Shown: one piece after another, positions 5,891-55,898 of the stretch
How the letters are laid out: every line of letters begins with the position of its first letter
Numbering within the stretch: position 1 is the first letter of the stretch
Assembly: GCF_050920415.1 (NCBI RefSeq)
Contig: NZ_CP169309.1
Direction: 5' to 3' (one strand)
Length of the DNA: 64,000 nucleotides
Origin: Escherichia coli
Lineage (GTDB): Bacteria; Pseudomonadota; Gammaproteobacteria; Enterobacterales; Enterobacteriaceae
Position numbers and translations under genes: made by a program
Notes under the pieces: model-generated
Seen by the model: the letters and a program-made list of their open reading frames with translations, nothing else
Told to the model about the DNA's origin: nothing
Database searches by the model: none

Positions 5891-6747
5891 CATTTCACCT
5901 CGCGGGAGAGTAGCTTCCACCAGGCATCGATGGTCGGATTTTTCGCCAGCATGACAAAATCGATATCGCCATGCACTTTGCGCCAGCGCGCCGCCAGCGC
6001 CATCATGCGCACCGAATCCAGACCGTAATCAATTAGGTTGTCGTCATCGAACGGCTCATCGGACTCGTCCAGCAACGGCAGGATCACCTCTCGCAGCGCC
6101 GCTTTGGTTGAAGGGATCGGTGCAGGCAATAGTTCTTCGGTCATCACCACCCGGCCAGAACGCCCGGCTACATATTTCAGCGACATCAAATGCTCGTCAC
6201 GACTGAAATCGGCCAGCGCATCCGCCACCATAAACGGTTTAATATCGCGCATAAATGCGTCGGTTGCGGTGGTCATACAGCCAATGTGGGCGTACACCCC
6301 GGTAATAATCAGCTGGTTACGTCCACTCTCTTTGAGCATTTGTTCCAGCGGAGAACGATGAAACGCGCTGTAGCGCCACTTCACCAGCACCGTGTCGTCG
6401 GCATCTGGCGTCAGGCGATCCACCACCTTTTGCTGTTCCGGTGAACGGGTCAGGCCCGGCCCCCACATATCATTCAACAGCGCCCGATCTTCATCGCTCT
6501 GCTCTTTCGGCTGGGCGGTGTAATAAACCGGAATATTGTGCTGTTTGCAGTAGTCGCGTAGTGCCGCAATATTCGCGATCACCTGCTCCATCATCGGGCA
6601 GTTCTCGCCCCAGAAGCTAACAAAATAGTCCTGCATATCATGGATTAACAACGCGGCACGTTGCGGCTCAAAGGCCCAGTTGACTTTATTGTGCGGAATA
6701 TCGTGAGACTCCGGCAGTGCGTAAGCCTGTAATTTTGGAATAGCCAT
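5890..6747 (-). CDS. entB: isochorismatase / aryl carrier protein EntB
   Basis: 285-aa ORF MAIPKLQAYALPESHDIPHNKVNWAFEPQRAALLIHDMQDYF; C-terminal carrier-domain motif LIDYGLDSVRMMAL (phosphopantetheine site Ser). Confidence 0.93.
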
Positions 6748-24916: not shown

Positions 24917-25069
24917 CTACTTCTTCGGTTCGTAAGCGAGAACAGCCCTGAACTCAATATTACGTTCCTTTACGGTGAACTCACACAGCGAGTCGCCGAC
25001 CAGAAGCGTAAATCCCAGCACTGTCAAACACAGCACTATGACCGCCACAAGGGCATATTTCGTCAGCAT
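24917..25069 (-). CDS. hokE: Hok-family membrane toxin, copy 1 (upstream frame fused in-frame by a 1-nt deletion)
   Basis: 50-aa [50 protein letters not shown] at the end of the 24917-25213 ORF; start codon at 25067-25069. Confidence 0.8.
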
Positions 25070-25418
25070 GTTTATATTGCCTCCATGCGAAGAAGGGACT
25101 ACCATCCAAATTGTCTGGTTTGGAGTGGCGGCCCCAGGGTTGATAGAAATATCTCCTGGGGCTTCATCTTTCCAGACCTCAGAGTTAACCTGAAACCGGA
25201 AAGCTTCAGGCACCCGCCGTTATCTTACCCTTCCTTAGCAAAATGGCTGTTTATTTATACAGTAAATCCTGTTCCGGACTTTTCATTAGTATTATCGCCC
25301 ATGCCAGTTAAACGACATCGCCCGCAGCCATCACTGACCACGGGCGAAAATGTAAAGCAGGTGCCTTACCACCCTGAACTGACAACCGGATATGCGGGGA
25401 TTACTCCCCGCACAACGG

Positions 25419-25571
25419 CTACTTCTTCGGTTCGTAAGCGAGAACAGCCCTGAACTCAATATTATGTTCCTTTACGGTGAACTCACACAGCGAGTCGCCG
25501 ACCAGAAGCGTAAATCCCAGCACTGTCAAACACAGCACTATGACCGCCACAAGGGCATATTTCGTCAGCAT
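25419..25571 (-). CDS. hokE: Hok-family membrane toxin, copy 2
   Basis: 50-aa [50 protein letters not shown]; an overlapping out-of-frame ORF (25483-25716) is in the position expected for mok. Confidence 0.8.
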
Positions 25572-25921
25572 GTTTATATTGCCTCCATGCGAAGAAGGGA
25601 CTACCATCCGAGTTGTTGAGGTTCGGAGTGGCAGCCCCAGGGTTGATAGAAATATCTCCTGGGGCTTCATCTTTCCAGACCTCAGAGTAAACCTGAAACC
25701 GGAAAGCTTCAGGCACCCGCCGTTATCTTACCCTTCCTTAGCAAAATGGCTGTTTATTTATACAGTGAGTCCTGTTTCGGACTTCTGTTGGCAAAACTGA
25801 TCATTGCTCTTAAAACGACATCGCCCGCAGCCATCACTGACCGCGGGCGAAAGTGTAAAGCAGGTGCCTTACCATCCTGACCTGACAACCGGATATGCGG
25901 GGATTACTCCCCGCACAACGG

Positions 25922-26074
25922 CTACTTCTTCGGTTCGTAAGCGAGAACAGCCTTAAACTCAATATTACGTTCCTTCACCGTAAACTCACACAGCGAGTCT
26001 CCGACCAGAACCGTAAATCCCAGCACCGTCAAACACAGCACTATGACTGCCACAAGGGCATATTTCGTCAGCAT
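25922..26074 (-). CDS. hokE: Hok-family membrane toxin, copy 3
   Basis: 50-aa [50 protein letters not shown]; overlapping out-of-frame mok-like ORF 25986-26219. Confidence 0.8.
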
Positions 26075-26515
26075 GTTTATATTGCCTCCATGCGAAGAAG
26101 GGACTACCATCCAAATTGTTTGGGTTTGGAGTGGCAGCCCCAGGGTTGATAGAAATATCTCCTGGGGCTTCATCTTTCCAGACCTCAGAGTAAACCTGAA
26201 ACCGGAAAGCTTCAGGCACCCGCCGTTATCTTACCCTTCCTCAACAAAATAGCTGTTTATTTATACAGTTAGTCTTATTTCGGACTTCTCACTACGCATC
26301 AGATCAACCGAAACTAAACCAATTTTTCCTTCGCCCCTCAATCGTCAAAATTCTCCGCCGCCAGCCAGCTCTGCCATAACTTGGCACATTGCAAAAGTAG
26401 CCAAATTGCTTCAGTAGCAATCAGTTCACCATCACCAAAAAAAGAAACATTCCAGAACTTCCGCATCTCTCCCGGCCGCTCCCACTTCTATACTCAAATG
26501 AAAACGCCAACATAA

Positions 26516-32132: not shown

Positions 32133-35100
32133 TTATTTCCGTACCCGATGTCGGTGCAGCCACATCAGCTTATACGCCGCCGGGATAATAAACAGCGACA
32201 GCAAAGGTGCGGTGATCATGCCGCCAATCATCGGCGCGGCAATCCGGCTCATCACCTCTGAACCTGCCCCCGTTCCCCACAGAATCGGCAGCAGACCCGC
32301 GATAATCACCGCCACAGTCATCGCTTTCGGGCGCACACGCAGCACCGCGCCGTGATATAACGCTTCATCCAGCTTCTGCTCGCTGAATGTTTGCGGATTA
32401 TCCAGGGATGGCTCTGCCTCTATGGCGTGACGTAAATACATCAGCATCACCACGCCAAATTCGGCGGCGACTCCCGCGAGGGCGATAAAGCCAGTGCCCG
32501 TTGCCACGGAAAGATGAAAGTCCATCCACCACAGTAACCAGATGCCACCCACCAGCGCAAACGGTACGCTGCTGATAATCAGCAACGCTTCGCCCACCCG
32601 ACGGAACGCCAGATACAACAGCACGAAGATGATCATCAACGTCATCGGCACCATGAGTTTCAGCTTGTGGTTGGCACGCTCCAGCAACTCGAACTGCCCG
32701 GAGAATGCCACGCTGGTACCCGGTTTTAACTGCACTTTTTCAGCTATCGCTTTTTGCAAATCGTGAACTACCGACACCATGTCACGATCGCGGGCATCGA
32801 TATAAATCCAGCTTGTCGGGCGCGCATTCTCGGTTTTCAGCATCGACGGTCCGGTAGAGACTTTAACGTCGGCCACATCCGCCAGGGTGATTTGCTGCTT
32901 CATCGGCGTCAGGATCGGTAGCTGGCGCAGCGCCTGTGGGCTATCGCGCCAGCTTTGCGGATAACGCAGATTAATTGGATAACGGGCAATCCCTTCCACC
33001 GTTTCACCAACCATCGCCCCGCCCACCGCAGATGTCACAAACAACTGCACATCCGCCACCGTCATACCGTAACGGGCGGCTTTTTCACGGTTGATCTCAA
33101 CGTTGATATAGCGCCCACCTTCCAGACGTTCAGCAAGGGCTGAGGCCACGCCTGGCACCGTTCGCGCCACTTCTTCAATTTGCTCCGCCATCGCGTCGAT
33201 ATCCGCCAGCACAGTGCCGGAAACTTTAATGCCGATAGGGCTTTTAATGCCGGTCGAGAGCATATCGATACGGTTACGGATTGGCGGCACCCACAGATTC
33301 GCCAGCCCCGGCAGACGCACGGTGTTATCCAGTTCCTCAATAATTTTTTCCATGGTCATGCCAGGCCGCCACTGATCCTGTGGCTTAAGCTGGATGGTCG
33401 TTTCTACCATCTCCAGCGGTGCGGAGTCGGTGGCGGTTTCCGCTTTCCCGGTTTTGCCAAACACCCGCGCCACTTCAGGTACGCTCATAATCAGCTTGTC
33501 GGTTTTTTGCAGCATACTCGCCGCCTCCGCTGCGGAAATCCCCGGCAGTGTCGATGGCATATACAACAAGTCGCCTTCATTGATCTGCGGTAAAAATTCT
33601 CCGCCAACTTTATTGAGCGGCCAGAGAACCGTCAGTACCGAAAGCGCCGCCACCAACAGCGTGGTTTTAGGCCAGTGCAGTACTTTCAGCAACAGCGGAT
33701 GATAAACACGAATCAAAAAGCGATTGAGCGGATTACTGCTTTCCGGTGGAATTTTTCCACGGATCCAGTAGCCCATCAGGATGGGGATCACTACGATCGC
33801 CAGCAGCGCCGCGCCCGCCATCGCATACGTTTTGGTGAACGCCAGCGGGCCAAACAGACGCCCTTCCTGCCCTTCCAGAGTGAAGATCGGGATAAACGAC
33901 AGCGTGATAATCAGCAAGCTGATAAACAGCGCCGGCCCCACTTCAACAGATGCATCGGTGATCACCTGCCAGCGCGTTTTATTATCCAGCGTGGCGTCAG
34001 GATGCTGGTGCTGCCACTCTTCCAGCCGTTTATGCGCATTCTCGATCATGACGATAGCGGCATCGACCATCGCCCCGACGGCAATCGCAATACCGCCCAG
34101 CGACATAATATTGGCATTCAGTCCCTGGAAGTGCATGACAATAAAAGCAATACACAACCCCAGCGGCAACGAAATAATCGCCACCAGCGCCGAGCGCACA
34201 TGCCAGAGAAACAGCGCGCAGACAACCGCCACCACAATAAACTCTTCCAGCAACTTGCCGCTGAGGTTGTCGATGGCTCGGTCAATAAGCTGGCTGCGAT
34301 CGTATGTTGTAACTATCTCCACGCCTTCCGGCAGACTGCTTTTCAGCGTTTCCAGTTTGTCCTTCACGGCGGCGATCACTTCACGGGCGTTTTTGCCGGA
34401 GCGCAGGATCACCACCCCGCCCGCCACTTCGCCTTCACCATTGAGTTCGGCAATGCCCCGGCGCATCTCCGGGCCAATCTGGACCTTCGCAACATCACGC
34501 AGATAAACGGGCACGCCATTTTCGCTGGCTTTTAAAACGATGTGATTAAAGTCGTCGAGCGTTTGCAGATAGCCGCTGGCGCGCACCATATATTCCGCTT
34601 CCGCCAGTTCGATCGACGAACCGCCCGCTTCCTGGTTTGAAGCATCCAGCGCATTTTTCACTTCGGCGAGACTGATGCCATACTGCGCCAGGCGCTGAGG
34701 ATCGATAACCACCTGATACTCTTTCACCACACCGCCCACCGACGCCACTTCCGCAACGTCAGGGATGGTTTTCAGCTCATATTTGAGAAACCAGTCCTGC
34801 AATGAACGTAAATCGGCCAGATCGTGCTTACCGCTGCGATCCACCAGCGCGTATTCATAGATCCAGCCAACACCCGTGGCATCTGGCCCCAACTCGGCGC
34901 TGACTCCCGCAGGCAGCTTACCCTGTACCTGGTTGAGGTACTCCAGCACCCGCGAGCGCGCCCAGTACGGATCGGTGCCATCTTCGAAAATGACATATAC
35001 ATAAGAGTCGCCAAACTGCGAGAAACCGCGCACAGTCTTCGCGCCAGGTACTGACAACATGGTGGTGGTTAGCGGATAAGTCACCTGATTTTCAACGATT

Positions 35101-50371: not shown

Positions 50372-51325
50372 ATGCGGGCGAAACTTCTGGGAATAGTTCT
50401 GACAACCCCTATTGCGATCAGCTCTTTTGCTTCTACCGAGACTATATCGTTTACTCCTGACAACATAAATGCGGACATTAGTCTTGGAACTCTGAGCGGA
50501 AAAACAAAAGAGCGCGTTTATCTAGCTGAAGAAGGAGGCCGAAAAGTCAGTCAACTCGACTGGAAATTCAATAACGCTGCAATTATTAAAGGTGCAATTA
50601 ATTGGGATTTGATGCCCCAGATATCTATTGGGGCTGCGGGCTGGACTACTCTCGGCAGCCGAGGTGGCAATATGGTCGATCAGGACTGGATGGATTCCAG
50701 TAACCCCGGAACCTGGACAGATGAAAGTAGGCACCCTGATACACAACTCAATTATGCCAACGAATTTGATCTGAATATCAAAGGCTGGCTCCTCAACGAA
50801 CCCAATTACCGCCTGGGACTCATGGCCGGATATCAGGAAAGCCGTTATAGCTTTACAGCCAGAGGTGGTTCCTATATCTACAGTTCTGAGGAGGGATTCA
50901 GAGATGATATCGGCTCCTTCCCGAATGGAGAAAGAGCAATCGGCTACAAACAACGTTTTAAAATGCCCTACATTGGCTTGACTGGAAGTTATCGTTATGA
51001 AGATTTTGAGCTAGGTGGCACATTTAAATACAGCGGCTGGGTGGAAGCATCTGATAACGATGAGCACTATGACCCAGGAAAAAGAATCACTTATCGCAGT
51101 AAAGTCAAAGACCAAAATTACTATTCTGTTGCAGTCAATGCAGGTTATTACGTAACACCTAACGCAAAAGTTTATGTTGAAGGCGCATGGAATCGGGTTA
51201 CGAATAAAAAAGGTAATACTTCACTTTATGATCACAATGATAACACTTCAGACTACAGCAAAAATGGTGCAGGCATAGAAAACTATAACTTCATCACTAC
51301 TGCTGGTCTTAAGTACACCTTTTAA
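50372..51325 (+). CDS. ompT: outer-membrane protease OmpT (omptin)
   Basis: 317-aa ORF MRAKLLGIVLTTPIAISSFASTETISFTPDNINADISLGTLSGKTKERVYLAEEGGRKVSQLDWKF. Confidence 0.95.
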   Translation: MRAKLLGIVLTTPIAISSFASTETISFTPDNINADISLGTLSGKTKERVYLAEEGGRKVSQLDWKFNNAAIIKGAINWDLMPQISIGAAGWTTLGSRGGNMVDQDWMDSSNPGTWTDESRHPDTQLNYANEFDLNIKGWLLNEPNYRLGLMAGYQESRYSFTARGGSYIYSSEEGFRDDIGSFPNGERAIGYKQRFKMPYIGLTGSYRYEDFELGGTFKYSGWVEASDNDEHYDPGKRITYRSKVKDQNYYSVAVNAGYYVTPNAKVYVEGAWNRVTNKKGNTSLYDHNDNTSDYSKNGAGIENYNFITTAGLKYTF

Positions 51326-51343
51326 CGAAGTTAACCAGATTTT

Positions 51344-51380
51344 CTCCCCGGTGGTATTGTATAACCCCGGGGAATTTGTT
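51344..51380 (+). terminator. putative intrinsic terminator downstream of ompT
   Basis: Stem ctccccgg / ccgggga around a 15-nt loop, followed by atttgttt. Confidence 0.5.
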
Positions 51381-51511
51381 TACAGTTACAAGTAGGCAAT
51401 ATCCACTAATTTTGTAAGCATTTAACCTATGTCATAACGTGTAATCTCTTACCGCAACACAAGACCTCAATATATTCAAATCTTATCTTTATTCCGATAT
51501 TCAGAGACACA

Positions 51512-52996
51512 ATGCGAAAAATAATCACTCATTTCAAAGTTGTTTTAACGTTACTTCTACCAGTAACCGTATCTGCCCAGCAGATACAGTGGCAATCCTG
51601 TATGGCCAGTCAATTCAACCACTGGTTTGGTGAGGAAAAACCGTCTCCTGACTTACTATGTGGTTATTTGTCTGTTCCATTAAAATATACAGACACAGGC
51701 GGAGATGCTTCTTATGAAAAAAAATCACAAGTCAAACTAGCGTTGACAAAATTGCCGGCAAAAAGCAAGCATAAAGGAAGTATCCTGATAATAAGTGGTG
51801 GTCCCGGGTTACCAGGCATAAATCCTTATATTAACTTTGACTGGCCAGTCACAAATCTTCGTGAGTCATGGGATATTATTGGATTTGATCCTCGAGGCGT
51901 CGGACAGTCCACTCCGACAATAAACTGCCGGCAATCAGATACAGAGACTCAGGAAAACATAACCGAAAAGCAACAAGTATTAAATAAAATTAATGCCTGT
52001 ATCCATAATACCGGAGCCGAAGTCATTCGCCATATCGGCTCTAACGAGGCTGTATACGATATTGATCGTATTAGGCAAGCCTTGGGGGATAAACAACTGA
52101 CAGCCGTGGCGTATTCGTATGGAACTCAAATTGCAGCCTTATATGCAGAACGTTTTCCCTACAACGTAAGATCTATCGTTCTTGATGGAGTCGTCGATAT
52201 CGATGACCTGGAGGACAACTTCACATGGCAACTCAAACAGGCACAGAGTTATCAGGAAACGTTTGATCGCTTTGCATCCTGGTGTGCGCGTACAAAAAGT
52301 TGCCCGCTTTCTTCAGACAGAGATAAGGCAATAACTCAGTTCCATGAGCTATTATCAAAATTACATCACAAACCTTTATTAGACAGTAAGGGAGAAAATA
52401 TATCTTCAGATGAACTCATATCATTAACAACAGACCTTCTGCTATGGCGTTCATCATGGCCAACCCTTGCAACTGCCATACGCCAGTTCTCTCAGGGGAT
52501 TGTCAGTAATGAAATTGAAACTGCGCTCAGTGCTCCGATAGCCTCAGAAGAGTCAAGCGATGCTTCGGGGGTAATCCTCTGTGTAGATCAGGGGGATGAG
52601 CAATTAACACCAGAAGAGCGAAAATCCCGAAAAGACGCTCTTGCGAATGCCTTCCCGGCTATTAACTTTGACAATGGACGTTCCGATTCACCTGATTTTT
52701 GTGAATTATGGCCAATACATAGCGACCTGAACAAAACTCGCCTGAAAAATACTGTTCTGCCCTCTGGTTTACTGTTTGTAGCACACAAATACGACCCAAC
52801 AACGCCCTGGATTAATGCCCGTAAGATGGCAGAGAAATTTTCCAGCCCGTTACTAACAATAAATGGTGATGGGCATACATTAGCTCTCACCGGAGTTAAT
52901 TTATGTGTAGATAAAGCAGTTGTACATTACCTGATCACTCCACAAAAAATAGAAAATATATACTGCCCAGGAAATTCTGAAGCAGAAATACAATAA
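51512..52996 (+). CDS. secreted alpha/beta-hydrolase, probable S33/TAP-like serine peptidase (prophage cargo)
   Basis: 494-aa ORF with signal peptide MRKIITHFKVVLTLLLPVTVSAQQ; oxyanion-hole-like GGPG, nucleophile-elbow AYSYGT, C-terminal GDGHT; family assignment by motif only. Confidence 0.6.
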   Translation: MRKIITHFKVVLTLLLPVTVSAQQIQWQSCMASQFNHWFGEEKPSPDLLCGYLSVPLKYTDTGGDASYEKKSQVKLALTKLPAKSKHKGSILIISGGPGLPGINPYINFDWPVTNLRESWDIIGFDPRGVGQSTPTINCRQSDTETQENITEKQQVLNKINACIHNTGAEVIRHIGSNEAVYDIDRIRQALGDKQLTAVAYSYGTQIAALYAERFPYNVRSIVLDGVVDIDDLEDNFTWQLKQAQSYQETFDRFASWCARTKSCPLSSDRDKAITQFHELLSKLHHKPLLDSKGENISSDELISLTTDLLLWRSSWPTLATAIRQFSQGIVSNEIETALSAPIASEESSDASGVILCVDQGDEQLTPEERKSRKDALANAFPAINFDNGRSDSPDFCELWPIHSDLNKTRLKNTVLPSGLLFVAHKYDPTTPWINARKMAEKFSSPLLTINGDGHTLALTGVNLCVDKAVVHYLITPQKIENIYCPGNSEAEIQ

Positions 52997-53179
52997 TTTC
53001 AAAATATTCCGCTATTTGCTCCCAATGCAAAACATATATTGCATTGGGAGCATATTCATATTTTTGTTATTATTGTATGAAATCGTCTCATGTACACGGT
53101 CCTTTTTTCGCCGAAAACTGATATTACTTTAATCAAAAGTTGACGTGCCAGATTCGAAGTAAATTTATAAAATATCAAA

Positions 53180-53485
53180 TCAATATACATTTTGCACCTT
53201 CGAGATAGTAATGACTGTTACTGTAACATGAGTTACAAACAGCTTCATACCCAGAGCTACTGATGTATCAACTCGATTCAACAATACCCGATATTTATTC
53301 CATGCCTCCAGCAACGATCTTTCTTCCTCCGTTGCGATTTCCAGATCTACAGCATCCTGCAGTGGCGCAATATACTCACTGAATTCCTGGATGTAGAACT
53401 GTGTGGTGACGGTCTTCCAGCCATTCGGCTCCTGCTGTATCGAAGCATACCAGGCTATTTCAATATCGCTATGCTGCGGCAGCAT
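53180..53485 (-). pseudogene. tail fibre assembly protein remnant (tfaX-like, C-terminal part only)
   Basis: Contains [38 protein letters not shown], near-identical to the C-terminus of the intact Tfa at 55996-56571; N-terminal part replaced by unrelated sequence. Confidence 0.7.
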
Positions 53486-53541: not shown

Positions 53542-54210
53542 ATGGTGAAATTAATGAAAAAAAACACAGATGATGGGGCTAAAATTTACACACCACTTAC
53601 CCTAAAGCTTTATGACTGGTGGGTTTTGGGAGTATCAAATCGGCTTGCATGGGGATGTCCTACAAAGGAACACCTTCTTCCACACTTTCTGGAACATTTA
53701 GGTAACAACCATCTGGATATTGGTGTTGGAACTGGGTTTTACCTTACTCACGTACCTGAGAGTAGTCTGATATCTTTAATGGATTTGAACGAAGCTAGCC
53801 TGAACGCGGCATCTACAAGGGCTGGGGAATCAAAAATTAAACATAAAATTAACCATGATGTTTTTGAACCTTATCCCGCGGCGTTACATGGTCAATTTGA
53901 TTCCATTTCCATGTTTTACCTTCTTCACTGCCTGCCTGGAAATATATCTACAAAAAGCTGTGTAATACGCAATGCGGCGCAGGCCTTAACTGACGATGGA
54001 ACTCTATACGGAGCCACAATTCTTGGCGATGGAGTTGTGCACAATAGCTTCGGTCAAAAACTGATGCGCATTTACAATCAGAAAGGCATCTTTTCAAACA
54101 CAAAAGATTCCGAAGAAGGCTTAACACATATACTCTCAGAGCATTTCGAGAATGTTAAAACCAAGGTTCAAGGTACTGTAGTAATGTTTTCCGCTTCAGG
54201 GAAAAAATAG
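53542..54210 (+). CDS. class I SAM-dependent methyltransferase (YbcY-like, apparently intact)
   Basis: 222-aa ORF with SAM-binding motif I LDIGVGTGFYL; start may be the internal MKKNT. Confidence 0.65.
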   Translation: MVKLMKKNTDDGAKIYTPLTLKLYDWWVLGVSNRLAWGCPTKEHLLPHFLEHLGNNHLDIGVGTGFYLTHVPESSLISLMDLNEASLNAASTRAGESKIKHKINHDVFEPYPAALHGQFDSISMFYLLHCLPGNISTKSCVIRNAAQALTDDGTLYGATILGDGVVHNSFGQKLMRIYNQKGIFSNTKDSEEGLTHILSEHFENVKTKVQGTVVMFSASGKK

Positions 54211-55307: not shown

Positions 55308-55898
55308 ATGTCTCGAATTTTTGCTTACTGTCGGATATCAACGCTGGATCAGACCATCGAAAATCAACGCCGGGAAATCGAAAGTGCAGGTTTTAAAATC
55401 AAACCTCAGCAAATAATCGAAGAACACATTAGCGGCTCAGCAGCAACCAGTGAGCGTCCTGGTTTTAACCGGTTGCTTGCTCGCCTGAAATGTGGTGATC
55501 AATTGATTGTGACAAAACTGGATCGCCTTGGTTGTAATGCAATGGATATCAGGAAAACAGTGGAACAACTGACCGAAACAGGTATCAGAGTGCATTGCTT
55601 AGCATTGGGGGGCATTGACCTGACCAGTCCAACAGGAAAAATGATGATGCACGTAATTTCAGCAGTCGCTGAATTTGAACGAGACCTTTTACTTGAACGC
55701 ACTCATTCCGGGATAGTAAGAGCCCGCGGCGCAGGGAAACGTTTTGGTCGACCACCTGTGTTAAATGAAGAACAGAAACAGGTGGTATTCGAACGAATTA
55801 AGTCAGGTGTAAGTATAAGTGCCATTGCCCGGGAATTCAAAACCTCGCGGCAAACCATTTTAAGAGCCAAAGCAAAACTTCAGACACCTGACATATAA
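55308..55898 (+). CDS. serine recombinase (resolvase/invertase family, Pin/Hin-sized)
   Basis: 196-aa [32 protein letters not shown] with catalytic Ser in YCRISTLDQ and C-terminal helix-turn-helix ([18 protein letters not shown]). Confidence 0.8.

Follow-up and report, generated by a model that had tools for sequence, protein, structure and literature searches.

The 64,000-nucleotide stretch of Escherichia coli DNA analyzed here (from contig NZ_CP169309.1; hereafter the window) carries, directly downstream of ompT, a gene for an alpha/beta-hydrolase at positions 51512 to 52996 (+ strand, ATG start, 494 amino acids, stop codon included; RefSeq WP_001226378.1, ‘alpha/beta hydrolase’). We read this gene, with a probability of roughly 0.6, as encoding an exported, disulfide-stabilized serine hydrolase of the type of Mycobacterium tuberculosis Hip1 that acts as a peptidase, and as the second gene of a mobile module of which an omptin is the first. 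Its orthologue in strain EDL933 is Z1930, which is annotated as “putative protease”. The original prediction, which had been made from the letters of the window, described a 494-residue protein with the motifs GGPG, AYSYGT and GDGHT, and both the coordinates and the motifs (residues 96-99, 200-205 and 452-456, respectively) proved to be as it had stated them.

The assignment of the hydrolase to the Hip1/TAP-like (tripeptidyl-peptidase) branch of peptidase family S33 is supported by domain models, by sequence and fold comparisons and by the published clustering of this family. In Pfam, residues 91-460 matched Abhydrolase_1 (5e-33) and residues 386-479 matched the TAP-like domain Abhydrolase_4 (PF08386; 2.1e-15), which carries the Asp and the His. 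Among the sequences of solved structures the best matches were Hip1 entries (E-values from 8e-52 to 1.6e-50 over residues 21-475), with TnmK1, TnmK2 and prolyl aminopeptidases far behind, and 2372 database homologues were found at E-values of at most 1e-10. Together, the Pfam matches, the match to Hip1 and the number of homologues show that the open reading frame is no chance product. An AlphaFold2 model built from an alignment of 40 sequences (mean predicted local distance difference test score 89.6, predicted template modelling score 0.90) consists of an alpha/beta core that is interrupted by an all-helical lid (residues 230-409) inserted between core strands. In this model, the nucleophile Ser202 is located at the elbow between a strand (residues 196-201) and a helix (residues 203-214), so that the alpha/beta-hydrolase hallmarks recognized in the original prediction are borne out by both the Abhydrolase_1 match and the model. 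When the model was compared with the PDB by Foldseek, the six best matches were all Hip1 structures (template modelling (TM) scores of 0.75-0.82), followed by TnmK1 and TnmK2 (0.74-0.76), while prolyl aminopeptidases reached about 0.35.

Hip1 and the tripeptidyl-peptidases constitute one of three clusters within family S33, apart from the prolyl aminopeptidases (PMC11878206). The resemblance to tripeptidyl-aminopeptidases that had been proposed for the hydrolase can thus be retained on the basis of the TAP-like domain and the Hip1 match, but the resemblance to proline iminopeptidases, which had been proposed alongside it, is that of a distant relative. Indeed, the NCBIfam model for prolyl aminopeptidases (TIGR01249) gave 35.8 bits against a cut-off of 259.75, with a match limited to residues 167-263. 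What the hydrolase has in common with prolyl aminopeptidase (S33.001) is the alpha/beta-hydrolase core and the region of the nucleophile elbow; the match is confined to about 95 residues around the nucleophile, and prolyl aminopeptidases are cytoplasmic proteins of about 310 amino acids that lack the large lid and the cysteines. TnmK1 and TnmK2, which belong to tiancimycin biosynthesis, have the same overall fold, but they are weak sequence matches (E-values of 2e-18 and 8.5e-09, 19-22% identity), and unlike them the E. coli gene is not surrounded by a biosynthetic cluster and specifies a signal peptide. The tripeptidyl aminopeptidase Tap of Streptomyces and the mycelium-associated SlpD and SlpE (MEROPS S33 tripeptidyl-peptidases), which fall in the same S33 cluster as Hip1 (PMC11878206; PMC4022732), are likewise secreted or envelope-associated enzymes with a TAP-like C-terminal domain; this likeness rests on the Pfam model and the literature rather than on a direct sequence comparison.

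In Hip1, the catalytic triad consists of Ser228, Asp463 and His490, and the oxyanion hole is formed by Tyr229 and Gly110 (PMC13041806). A HMMER alignment paired these residues with S202, D428, H455, Y203 and G97 of the hydrolase, and T466 with T431, and all six of the hydrolase residues are invariant in 40 homologues of 27-81% identity. The alignment of a catalytic triad with that of a known hydrolase, on which the original prediction depended, was thus obtained. We consider Ser202-Asp428-His455 the putative catalytic triad, with Gly97, in the (P/S)GGPG loop, and Tyr203, next to the nucleophile, as the likely oxyanion hole. The corresponding codons are located at 52115-52117 (Ser202, in AYSYGT), 52793-52795 (Asp428, in YDPTTP) and 52874-52876 (His455, in GDGHT), and the GGPG motif that comprises residues G96-G99 is specified by 51797-51808 (all + strand). 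Of the residues reported to line the S1 pocket of Hip1, Y229, V254, Q267 and T466 are matched by Y203, V228, Q243 and T431. All 10 cysteines of the hydrolase are at least 90% conserved in the 40 homologues and nine of them align with cysteines of Hip1, which has 11 cysteines and five predicted disulfide bonds (PMC4022732). The likeness to Hip1 (Rv2224c, ‘carboxylesterase A’) therefore extends over length, alpha/beta core and helical lid (TM scores of 0.77-0.81), the positions of triad and GGPG motif and nine cysteines, and both proteins are exported to the cell envelope, which on the E. coli side is a prediction. The differences are that the identity amounts to 26-28%, that the E. coli gene is borne by phages and plasmids in a Gram-negative host, and that an obvious equivalent of GroEL2, the substrate of Hip1, is lacking in the E. 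coli envelope.

The hydrolase is predicted to carry a Sec-type signal peptide and, hence, to be an exported enzyme. We read the signal peptide by inspection and by comparison across homologues: residues 1-22 (MRKIITHFKVVLTLLLPVTVSA, specified by 51512-51577, + strand) comprise a basic n-region, a hydrophobic core and a V-S-A cleavage motif, with predicted cleavage before QQIQW. Windows of 19 residues with a mean Kyte-Doolittle hydropathy above 1.4 start only at residues 3 and 4, and inspection of the N-terminus revealed no lipobox cysteine in the leader. An equivalent leader that ends just before the conserved motif IQW(E/Q)SC is present in all six diverged versions of the hydrolase described below, and equivalent leaders were found at eight loci in seven other genera (among them Enterobacillus, Yersinia, Chromobacterium, Providencia, Pantoea and Pseudomonas). 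The signal peptide that had been proposed from the single sequence thus recurs in diverged relatives. The computed mass of the mature protein is 52.5 kDa. We also observed that the profile of PHROG 20134 begins at Met31 (the window segment up to this point being 51512-51601), which implies that some phage annotations start the gene 90 nucleotides late and thereby lose the signal peptide.

The protein is made, since Z1930 was detected in the shotgun proteome of the O157:H7 Shiga toxin-producing strain 86-24 with non-zero values in all listed samples (PMC3210124, Tables S2 and S7). Its abundance ranged from about 200 to 1750 APEX units, compared with about 1600 to 25000 for OmpT (PMC3210124). 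The authors of that study assigned its location as ‘PP or Ex’, and in their SEC-fraction enrichment the non-zero values occurred mostly in one fraction group (p = 1.3e-6; PMC3210124).

The second part of our reading concerns the association with omptins. The gene ompT, which encodes the omptin outer-membrane protease, is located at 50372-51325 (+ strand), and we found this arrangement of omptin and hydrolase repeatedly on unrelated mobile elements. A tblastn search of plasmids returned 285 records with the hydrolase; in about 15 E. coli IncF plasmids among them the protein identity of the copy is 95-98%, and in 166 records it is 60-80%. In every plasmid or assembly context that we inspected, an omptin gene was located immediately upstream of the hydrolase gene on the same strand. 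These contexts include a 91%-identical omptin next to iroN, ompP plus hydrolase on IncF plasmids, and three more versions from assemblies whose flanks are IS66, pap and autotransporter genes, or other insertion sequence (IS) elements. On the F plasmid (NC_002483.1), ompP (32322-33269) is followed after 104 nucleotides by an ‘alpha/beta hydrolase’ gene (33374-34861); OmpP is 70% identical to OmpT and the F-plasmid hydrolase is 76% identical to the protein of the window. Strains of K-12 that are F+ thus have a Hip1-like hydrolase despite their chromosomal appY. Altogether, six versions of the module with hydrolases of 76-100% identity were distinguished on inducible phages, IncF plasmids and the F plasmid. 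In these six versions and F, the order and strand of the two genes are constant, the spacers measure 92-188 nucleotides, and the flanks outside the pair are unrelated. The pairwise identities of the omptins and the hydrolases are closely correlated (r = 0.95 over 15 pairs from the six versions). The synonymous divergence (dS) between versions ranges from about 1 to above 2, which means saturation of synonymous sites, and the ratio of non-synonymous to synonymous divergence (dN/dS) of the hydrolase is 0.12-0.17 at a dS of about 1, a value of about 0.25 being found only for the closest pair. This shows that the hydrolase is under purifying selection.

Among the viral loci of IMG/VR, ompT is located upstream of the hydrolase gene in 16 of 18; in one of the other two an IS element separates the genes, and the other is cut at the end of its contig. 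The locus with the IS element, in which ompT appeared to be missing upstream, is no exception: the element has inserted at about position 51431, and the contig ends inside it. An omptin followed by the hydrolase is thus a co-diverging mobile two-gene module, which is confined to a mobile Escherichia clade and universal within it. Identical (100%) contigs of 2-4 kb with ompT and the hydrolase gene also occur in metagenome-assembled genomes labelled Haemophilus, Collinsella and Lachnospiraceae; these are almost certainly mis-binned E. coli or phage DNA.

The situation outside Escherichia is different. A scan of genome contigs with two restrictive peptide patterns returned 13 loci, which does not establish absence from other species. 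Homologues of 45-56% identity were found in Salmonella as cargo of a Tn7-like element, on transposase-flanked regions of Serratia plasmids, and furthermore in Budvicia, Enterobacillus, Yersinia thracica, Providencia, Pantoea, Chromobacterium, Pseudomonas and two unassigned contigs. The homologues in Budvicia, Yersinia, Providencia, Pantoea, Chromobacterium and Pseudomonas are stand-alone chromosomal genes. Within 3.5 kb of these 45-56% homologues in other genera we found no omptin gene. The neighbours of 15 non-Escherichia homologues showed no common partner, and they include Tn7-like genes, transposases, Fic, an EptA-like gene, sugar transporters and a subtilase-like open reading frame.

The transcription signals of the module were also inspected. 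Just after the ompT stop codon a G+C-rich hairpin (TCCCCGGTGGT...ACCCCGGGGA, followed by AATTTGTTT) is located at 51345-51373 (+ strand). An equivalent hairpin of diverged sequence is predicted after the omptin gene in all six versions of the module, and the hydrolase start codon follows 45-140 nucleotides past it. The hairpin belongs to the omptin gene, because it is present also in K-12 and in strains of the uropathogenic E. coli (UPEC) type that have no hydrolase, and it is probably an omptin terminator, an attenuator or a 3' stabilizer. A second, terminator-like hairpin with 14 pairs and a T-rich tail lies 21 bp past the hydrolase stop codon (53017-53052, + strand). A consensus scan of the + strand of the ompT-hydrolase spacer identified no consensus sigma-70 promoter, and candidates picked manually were weak. 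An Rfam scan of the whole window returned nothing between 50 and 54 kb. The ompT, ompP and arlC promoters are PhoP-dependent (bioRxiv 10.1101/2020.02.28.965145), and the hydrolase may share this PhoP-dependent transcription with the omptin if polymerases read through the intergenic hairpin, or it may have a weak promoter of its own.

Several observations weigh against our interpretation. In 10 other species the homologues have no omptin beside them, which means that omptin and hydrolase may be paired for historical reasons and not because they function together. The two genes are separated by a hairpin with an imperfect T-tract, and the scan of the spacer revealed no consensus promoter. Neither K-12 nor about 60% of the ompT-positive genomes have the hydrolase, and OmpT works there nevertheless. 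The pocket residues R232, K469 and E113 of Hip1 are replaced by Q206, I434 and L100. Moreover, not all members of the Hip1 clade are peptidases, TnmK1 and TnmK2 being biosynthetic proteins and Hip1 itself having first been called carboxylesterase A. Finally, our literature search found no paper that discusses the E. coli protein, its enzymology or its genetics.

The strongest competing explanation is that hydrolase and omptin are functionally unrelated and adjacent merely through joint movement as a small DNA block, the hydrolase then being generic mobile cargo with a role of its own. We regard this as a real possibility, though not as the probable one. The occurrence of the 45-56% homologues without an omptin, be it as Tn7-like cargo, on Serratia plasmids or as chromosomal genes, is as this explanation would have it, as are the hairpin terminators that each of the two genes has for itself, the activity of OmpT in K-12 without the hydrolase and the 1138 genomes that have deleted the hydrolase. 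Against this explanation, six versions separated by a dS of about 1 to above 2 keep order, strand and a spacing of 92-188 nucleotides in differing surroundings, and the G+C contents of the two genes match (hydrolase 42.3%, ompT 43.5%, compared with 51.3% for the window).

A second explanation holds that the protein is exported as our interpretation has it, but that it is a carboxylesterase, lipase or lactonase that acts on lipids, acylated envelope components or small esters instead of a peptidase. An alpha/beta-hydrolase triad alone does not specify the substrate, and Hip1 structures were deposited under the name ‘Carboxylesterase A’, while the esterase activity of Hip1 was measured with p-nitrophenyl butyrate (PMC4022732). 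Phage annotators have used the name ‘putative lactone hydrolase’ and relatives at JGI are named ‘pimeloyl-ACP methyl ester carboxylesterase’, but such names were assigned by automatic transfer and not by test. Neither of the structural relatives TnmK1 and TnmK2 is a peptidase, and the three altered pocket residues are less charged than those of Hip1; on the other hand, the S1-lining residues Y203, V228, Q243 and T431 are conserved. Hip1, the closest experimentally characterized relative, is a bona fide serine protease that cuts GroEL2 after Arg12 and also frees the N-terminal tripeptide from a GroEL2 peptide (PMC4022732), and the clade is classed with tripeptidyl-peptidases (PMC11878206). An esterase is on balance unlikely, if deserving of some weight.

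Under the interpretation that we prefer, that of a Hip1-type peptidase within an omptin module, the mature 52.5-kDa enzyme would reside in the periplasm or elsewhere in the cell envelope, where it could fold with disulfide bonds. By analogy to Hip1, it would act on peptide bonds and not on esters, either by releasing N-terminal tripeptides or by cutting near the N-termini of proteins. The most speculative step is that the hydrolase may act downstream of the surface-exposed omptin by degrading omptin-made fragments in the periplasm, the source of which could be cationic host-defence peptides or other envelope proteins. OmpT prefers dibasic cleavage sites. At the cell surface, OmpT-type enzymes degrade cationic host-defence peptides (bioRxiv 10.1101/2020.02.28.965145), and a periplasmic peptidase could therefore dispose of the fragments or share the targets. 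Lambdoid phages carry the module in the b region, which separates the tail-fibre genes from the attachment site, in an orientation opposite to that of the tail genes; the hydrolase half of the module has been replaced by appY in K-12 and deleted in UPEC-type strains. Taken to its full extent, this would amount to a two-compartment proteolytic system, in which the surface omptin cuts host peptides or proteins and a periplasmic or outer-membrane-vesicle-borne S33 peptidase finishes the fragments or processes envelope or host proteins in the manner of Hip1, and which is spread by lambdoid phages and F-type plasmids. We consider this complete scheme doubtful. The more general idea that the ompT-hydrolase pair is a virulence or fitness cargo, which was part of the original prediction, is still an inference, but it is strengthened by the conserved pairing, the purifying selection and the proteomic detection.

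Upstream of ompT are envY, ybcH, nfrA and nfrB, and downstream of the hydrolase are a tail-fibre-assembly (tfaX-like) remnant that forms the right border of the cargo slot (53180-53485, - strand), a class I S-adenosylmethionine-dependent methyltransferase gene (53542-54210, + strand), small genes of the ynaM/ydfK type, a Pin-type invertase gene, tfa, stf, lom and J. The methyltransferase gene is intact here, corresponds to the pseudogene ybcY of K-12 and travels with the module in phages. The hydrolase region is the distal end of a lambdoid prophage: read from the other side, the order in the window is J-lom-stf-tfa-pin, then, after further genes, methyltransferase-tfa remnant-hydrolase-ompT, followed by the chromosomal envY. 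In the complete genome of phage ev243 the order is int, ompT, hydrolase, tfa remnant, methyltransferase, tail fibre and lom, which places ompT and the hydrolase in the b region beside the attachment site, with the tail genes on the other strand. The early view of the gene as prophage cargo beside ompT can be upheld. Eleven phage records carry the hydrolase at 99.4-100% protein identity; five of these list no host, and for the other six the host is K-12 MG1655, E. coli C, ECOR13 or just E. coli. This carriage implies that infective phages transmit the ompT-hydrolase pair. With its site in the b region, its location outside the late operon, its atypical G+C content and its presence in infective phages, the hydrolase gene has the properties of lysogenic-conversion cargo, a ‘moron’ of lambdoid phages. 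The sequence of the locus is 100% identical to that of several commensal and pathogenic E. coli chromosomes, and its annotation in related genomes is that of an intact ‘alpha/beta hydrolase’ gene and not that of a pseudogene, so that the gene is not the pseudogene remnant that the original prediction had allowed for.

Since prophage cargo slots of this kind often hold defence genes, a prophage-encoded function in anti-phage defence or superinfection exclusion, for instance the periplasmic degradation of incoming phage proteins, was also considered. The PADLOC-DB model PDLC01094 (‘TAP-like protein’) indeed matches the hydrolase over its full length (E-value 5.9e-57), and the neighbouring methyltransferase is a weak match to PADLOC mad2 (E-value 7e-4). 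Nevertheless, the PDLC01094 match is at the level of the family, its bits being similar to those of the Hip1 match, and could not be traced to any system; the same pair occurs on plasmids away from phage genes, the relatives are lone chromosomal genes, and no other defence component is adjacent to the hydrolase gene. A role in defence thus appears very improbable. That the gene is a decaying, non-functional remnant of phage cargo, as its surroundings of pseudogenes and remnants (the tfa fragment, and ybcY as a pseudogene in K-12) and its loss from many lineages could suggest, is effectively refuted by the intact open reading frames of 1225 genomes (coverage of at least 80%; 1212 of them with at least 99% identity), the low dN/dS of 0.12-0.17, the invariant triad, the conserved cysteines and the detection of the protein in O157:H7.

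To define the variation at the ompT slot, we counted its alleles in 5426 complete E. coli genomes. Of these, 3094 have ompT and 1253 have the hydrolase; the appY cassette was found in 838 and a contiguous deletion junction in 1138. These three alleles (hydrolase, derived deletion and appY) account for essentially all ompT-positive genomes, and the hydrolase allele is the commonest of the three and ancestral to at least one other. As stated in the original prediction, K-12 has appY where the window has the hydrolase, and the comparison establishes this to the base: homology to K-12 ends at 51329, four bases past the ompT stop codon, and sets in again at 53256, where the tfa homology ends. The variable cassette between these breaks (51330-53255) measures 1926 bp in the window and is replaced in K-12 by a 1572-bp segment of 29.6% G+C with appY. 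The K-12 prophage DLP12 (ompT-appY-tfaX-ybcY) thus has the same site and flanks, with nfrA-ybcH-envY-ompT on one side and tfaX and the methyltransferase gene on the other, but differs in its cassette, which encodes the AraC-type regulator AppY instead of the hydrolase in DNA of about 42% G+C.

In UPEC-type strains the stretch corresponding to 51482-53455 is missing, and ompT is followed directly by the methyltransferase gene. Since 156 bp of the ompT-hydrolase spacer are retained, this arrangement is a deletion from the hydrolase arrangement. In strain Ecol_AZ161 the deletion is a clean 1974 bp, which removes the hydrolase gene and the tfa remnant, and at its junction (6099-6109 of the locus) about 11 bp align to both sides as a short imperfect repeat. 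In O157:H7, the same 3-kb ompT-hydrolase block belongs to another prophage, close to minCDE, and is directly followed by an ISEc8 insertion. The ISEc8 target duplication GAGCTACT (10937/13379 of the locus, equivalent to about 53254-53262 of the window) coincides with the K-12 junction at 53256, which reflects either an insertion hot spot or a coincidence. An IS-mediated origin of the K-12 appY cassette was considered and rejected, as the cassette has no similarity to ISEc8 and contains no IS remnant.

Other features of the window were recorded in passing. Two copies of a 121-bp tfa segment (53261-53381 and 56032-56152) flank the gene for the Pin-type invertase (55308-55898) and are remnants of tail-fibre module shuffling; their identity of 88-91% was determined between the paralogous copies in related genomes and not from an alignment of the window copies themselves. 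A full-length Rfam match to IS009 (226.7 bits) lies at 56030-56228 (- strand) inside the tail-fibre-assembly gene at 55996-56571. Further away, three tandem Rfam matches to the sok antitoxin RNA (RF01794), spaced by about 500 bp at 25061-26221 (- strand), indicate a putative triplicated hok/sok-type locus.

At the level of annotation, the existence of the gene and its broad family are known: its annotation dates back to the EDL933 genome, and it is listed in RefSeq, in PHROGs (phrog_20134, unknown function) and in phage records. In the literature that we searched, neither the gene nor the omptin-hydrolase pairing is discussed in a main text, the sole mention being in the supplementary tables of the proteome study. 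ArlB, which is encoded with the omptin ArlC in arlABC, was considered as a possible description of this hydrolase and rejected, ArlB being an NAD-dependent epimerase (PMC5053483). What is new, then, is an uncharacterized member of a known enzyme family in a previously undescribed association with omptins.

OmpT is among the best-studied proteases of E. coli and a recognized factor in resistance to host-defence peptides, and Hip1 has been validated in tuberculosis both as a virulence factor and as a drug target. The present data connect these two well-known proteases in a testable hypothesis, in that a Hip1-type enzyme, which occurs in O157:H7 and O111 strains as well as on inducible phages and the classical F plasmid, is co-inherited with omptins across deep divergence. 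The three-allele picture clarifies the evolution of the ompT locus, and the hydrolase could account for differences in omptin phenotypes that set pathogenic strains apart from K-12, where appY is present instead of the hydrolase. Should the two-compartment system be real, the hydrolase would be an overlooked fitness or immune-evasion factor of enterohaemorrhagic E. coli O157 and O111 and of F+ strains. Even if it were an ordinary periplasmic peptidase without a phenotype, its annotation would still improve from ‘alpha/beta hydrolase’ to ‘S33 Hip1/TAP-like exported serine hydrolase’.

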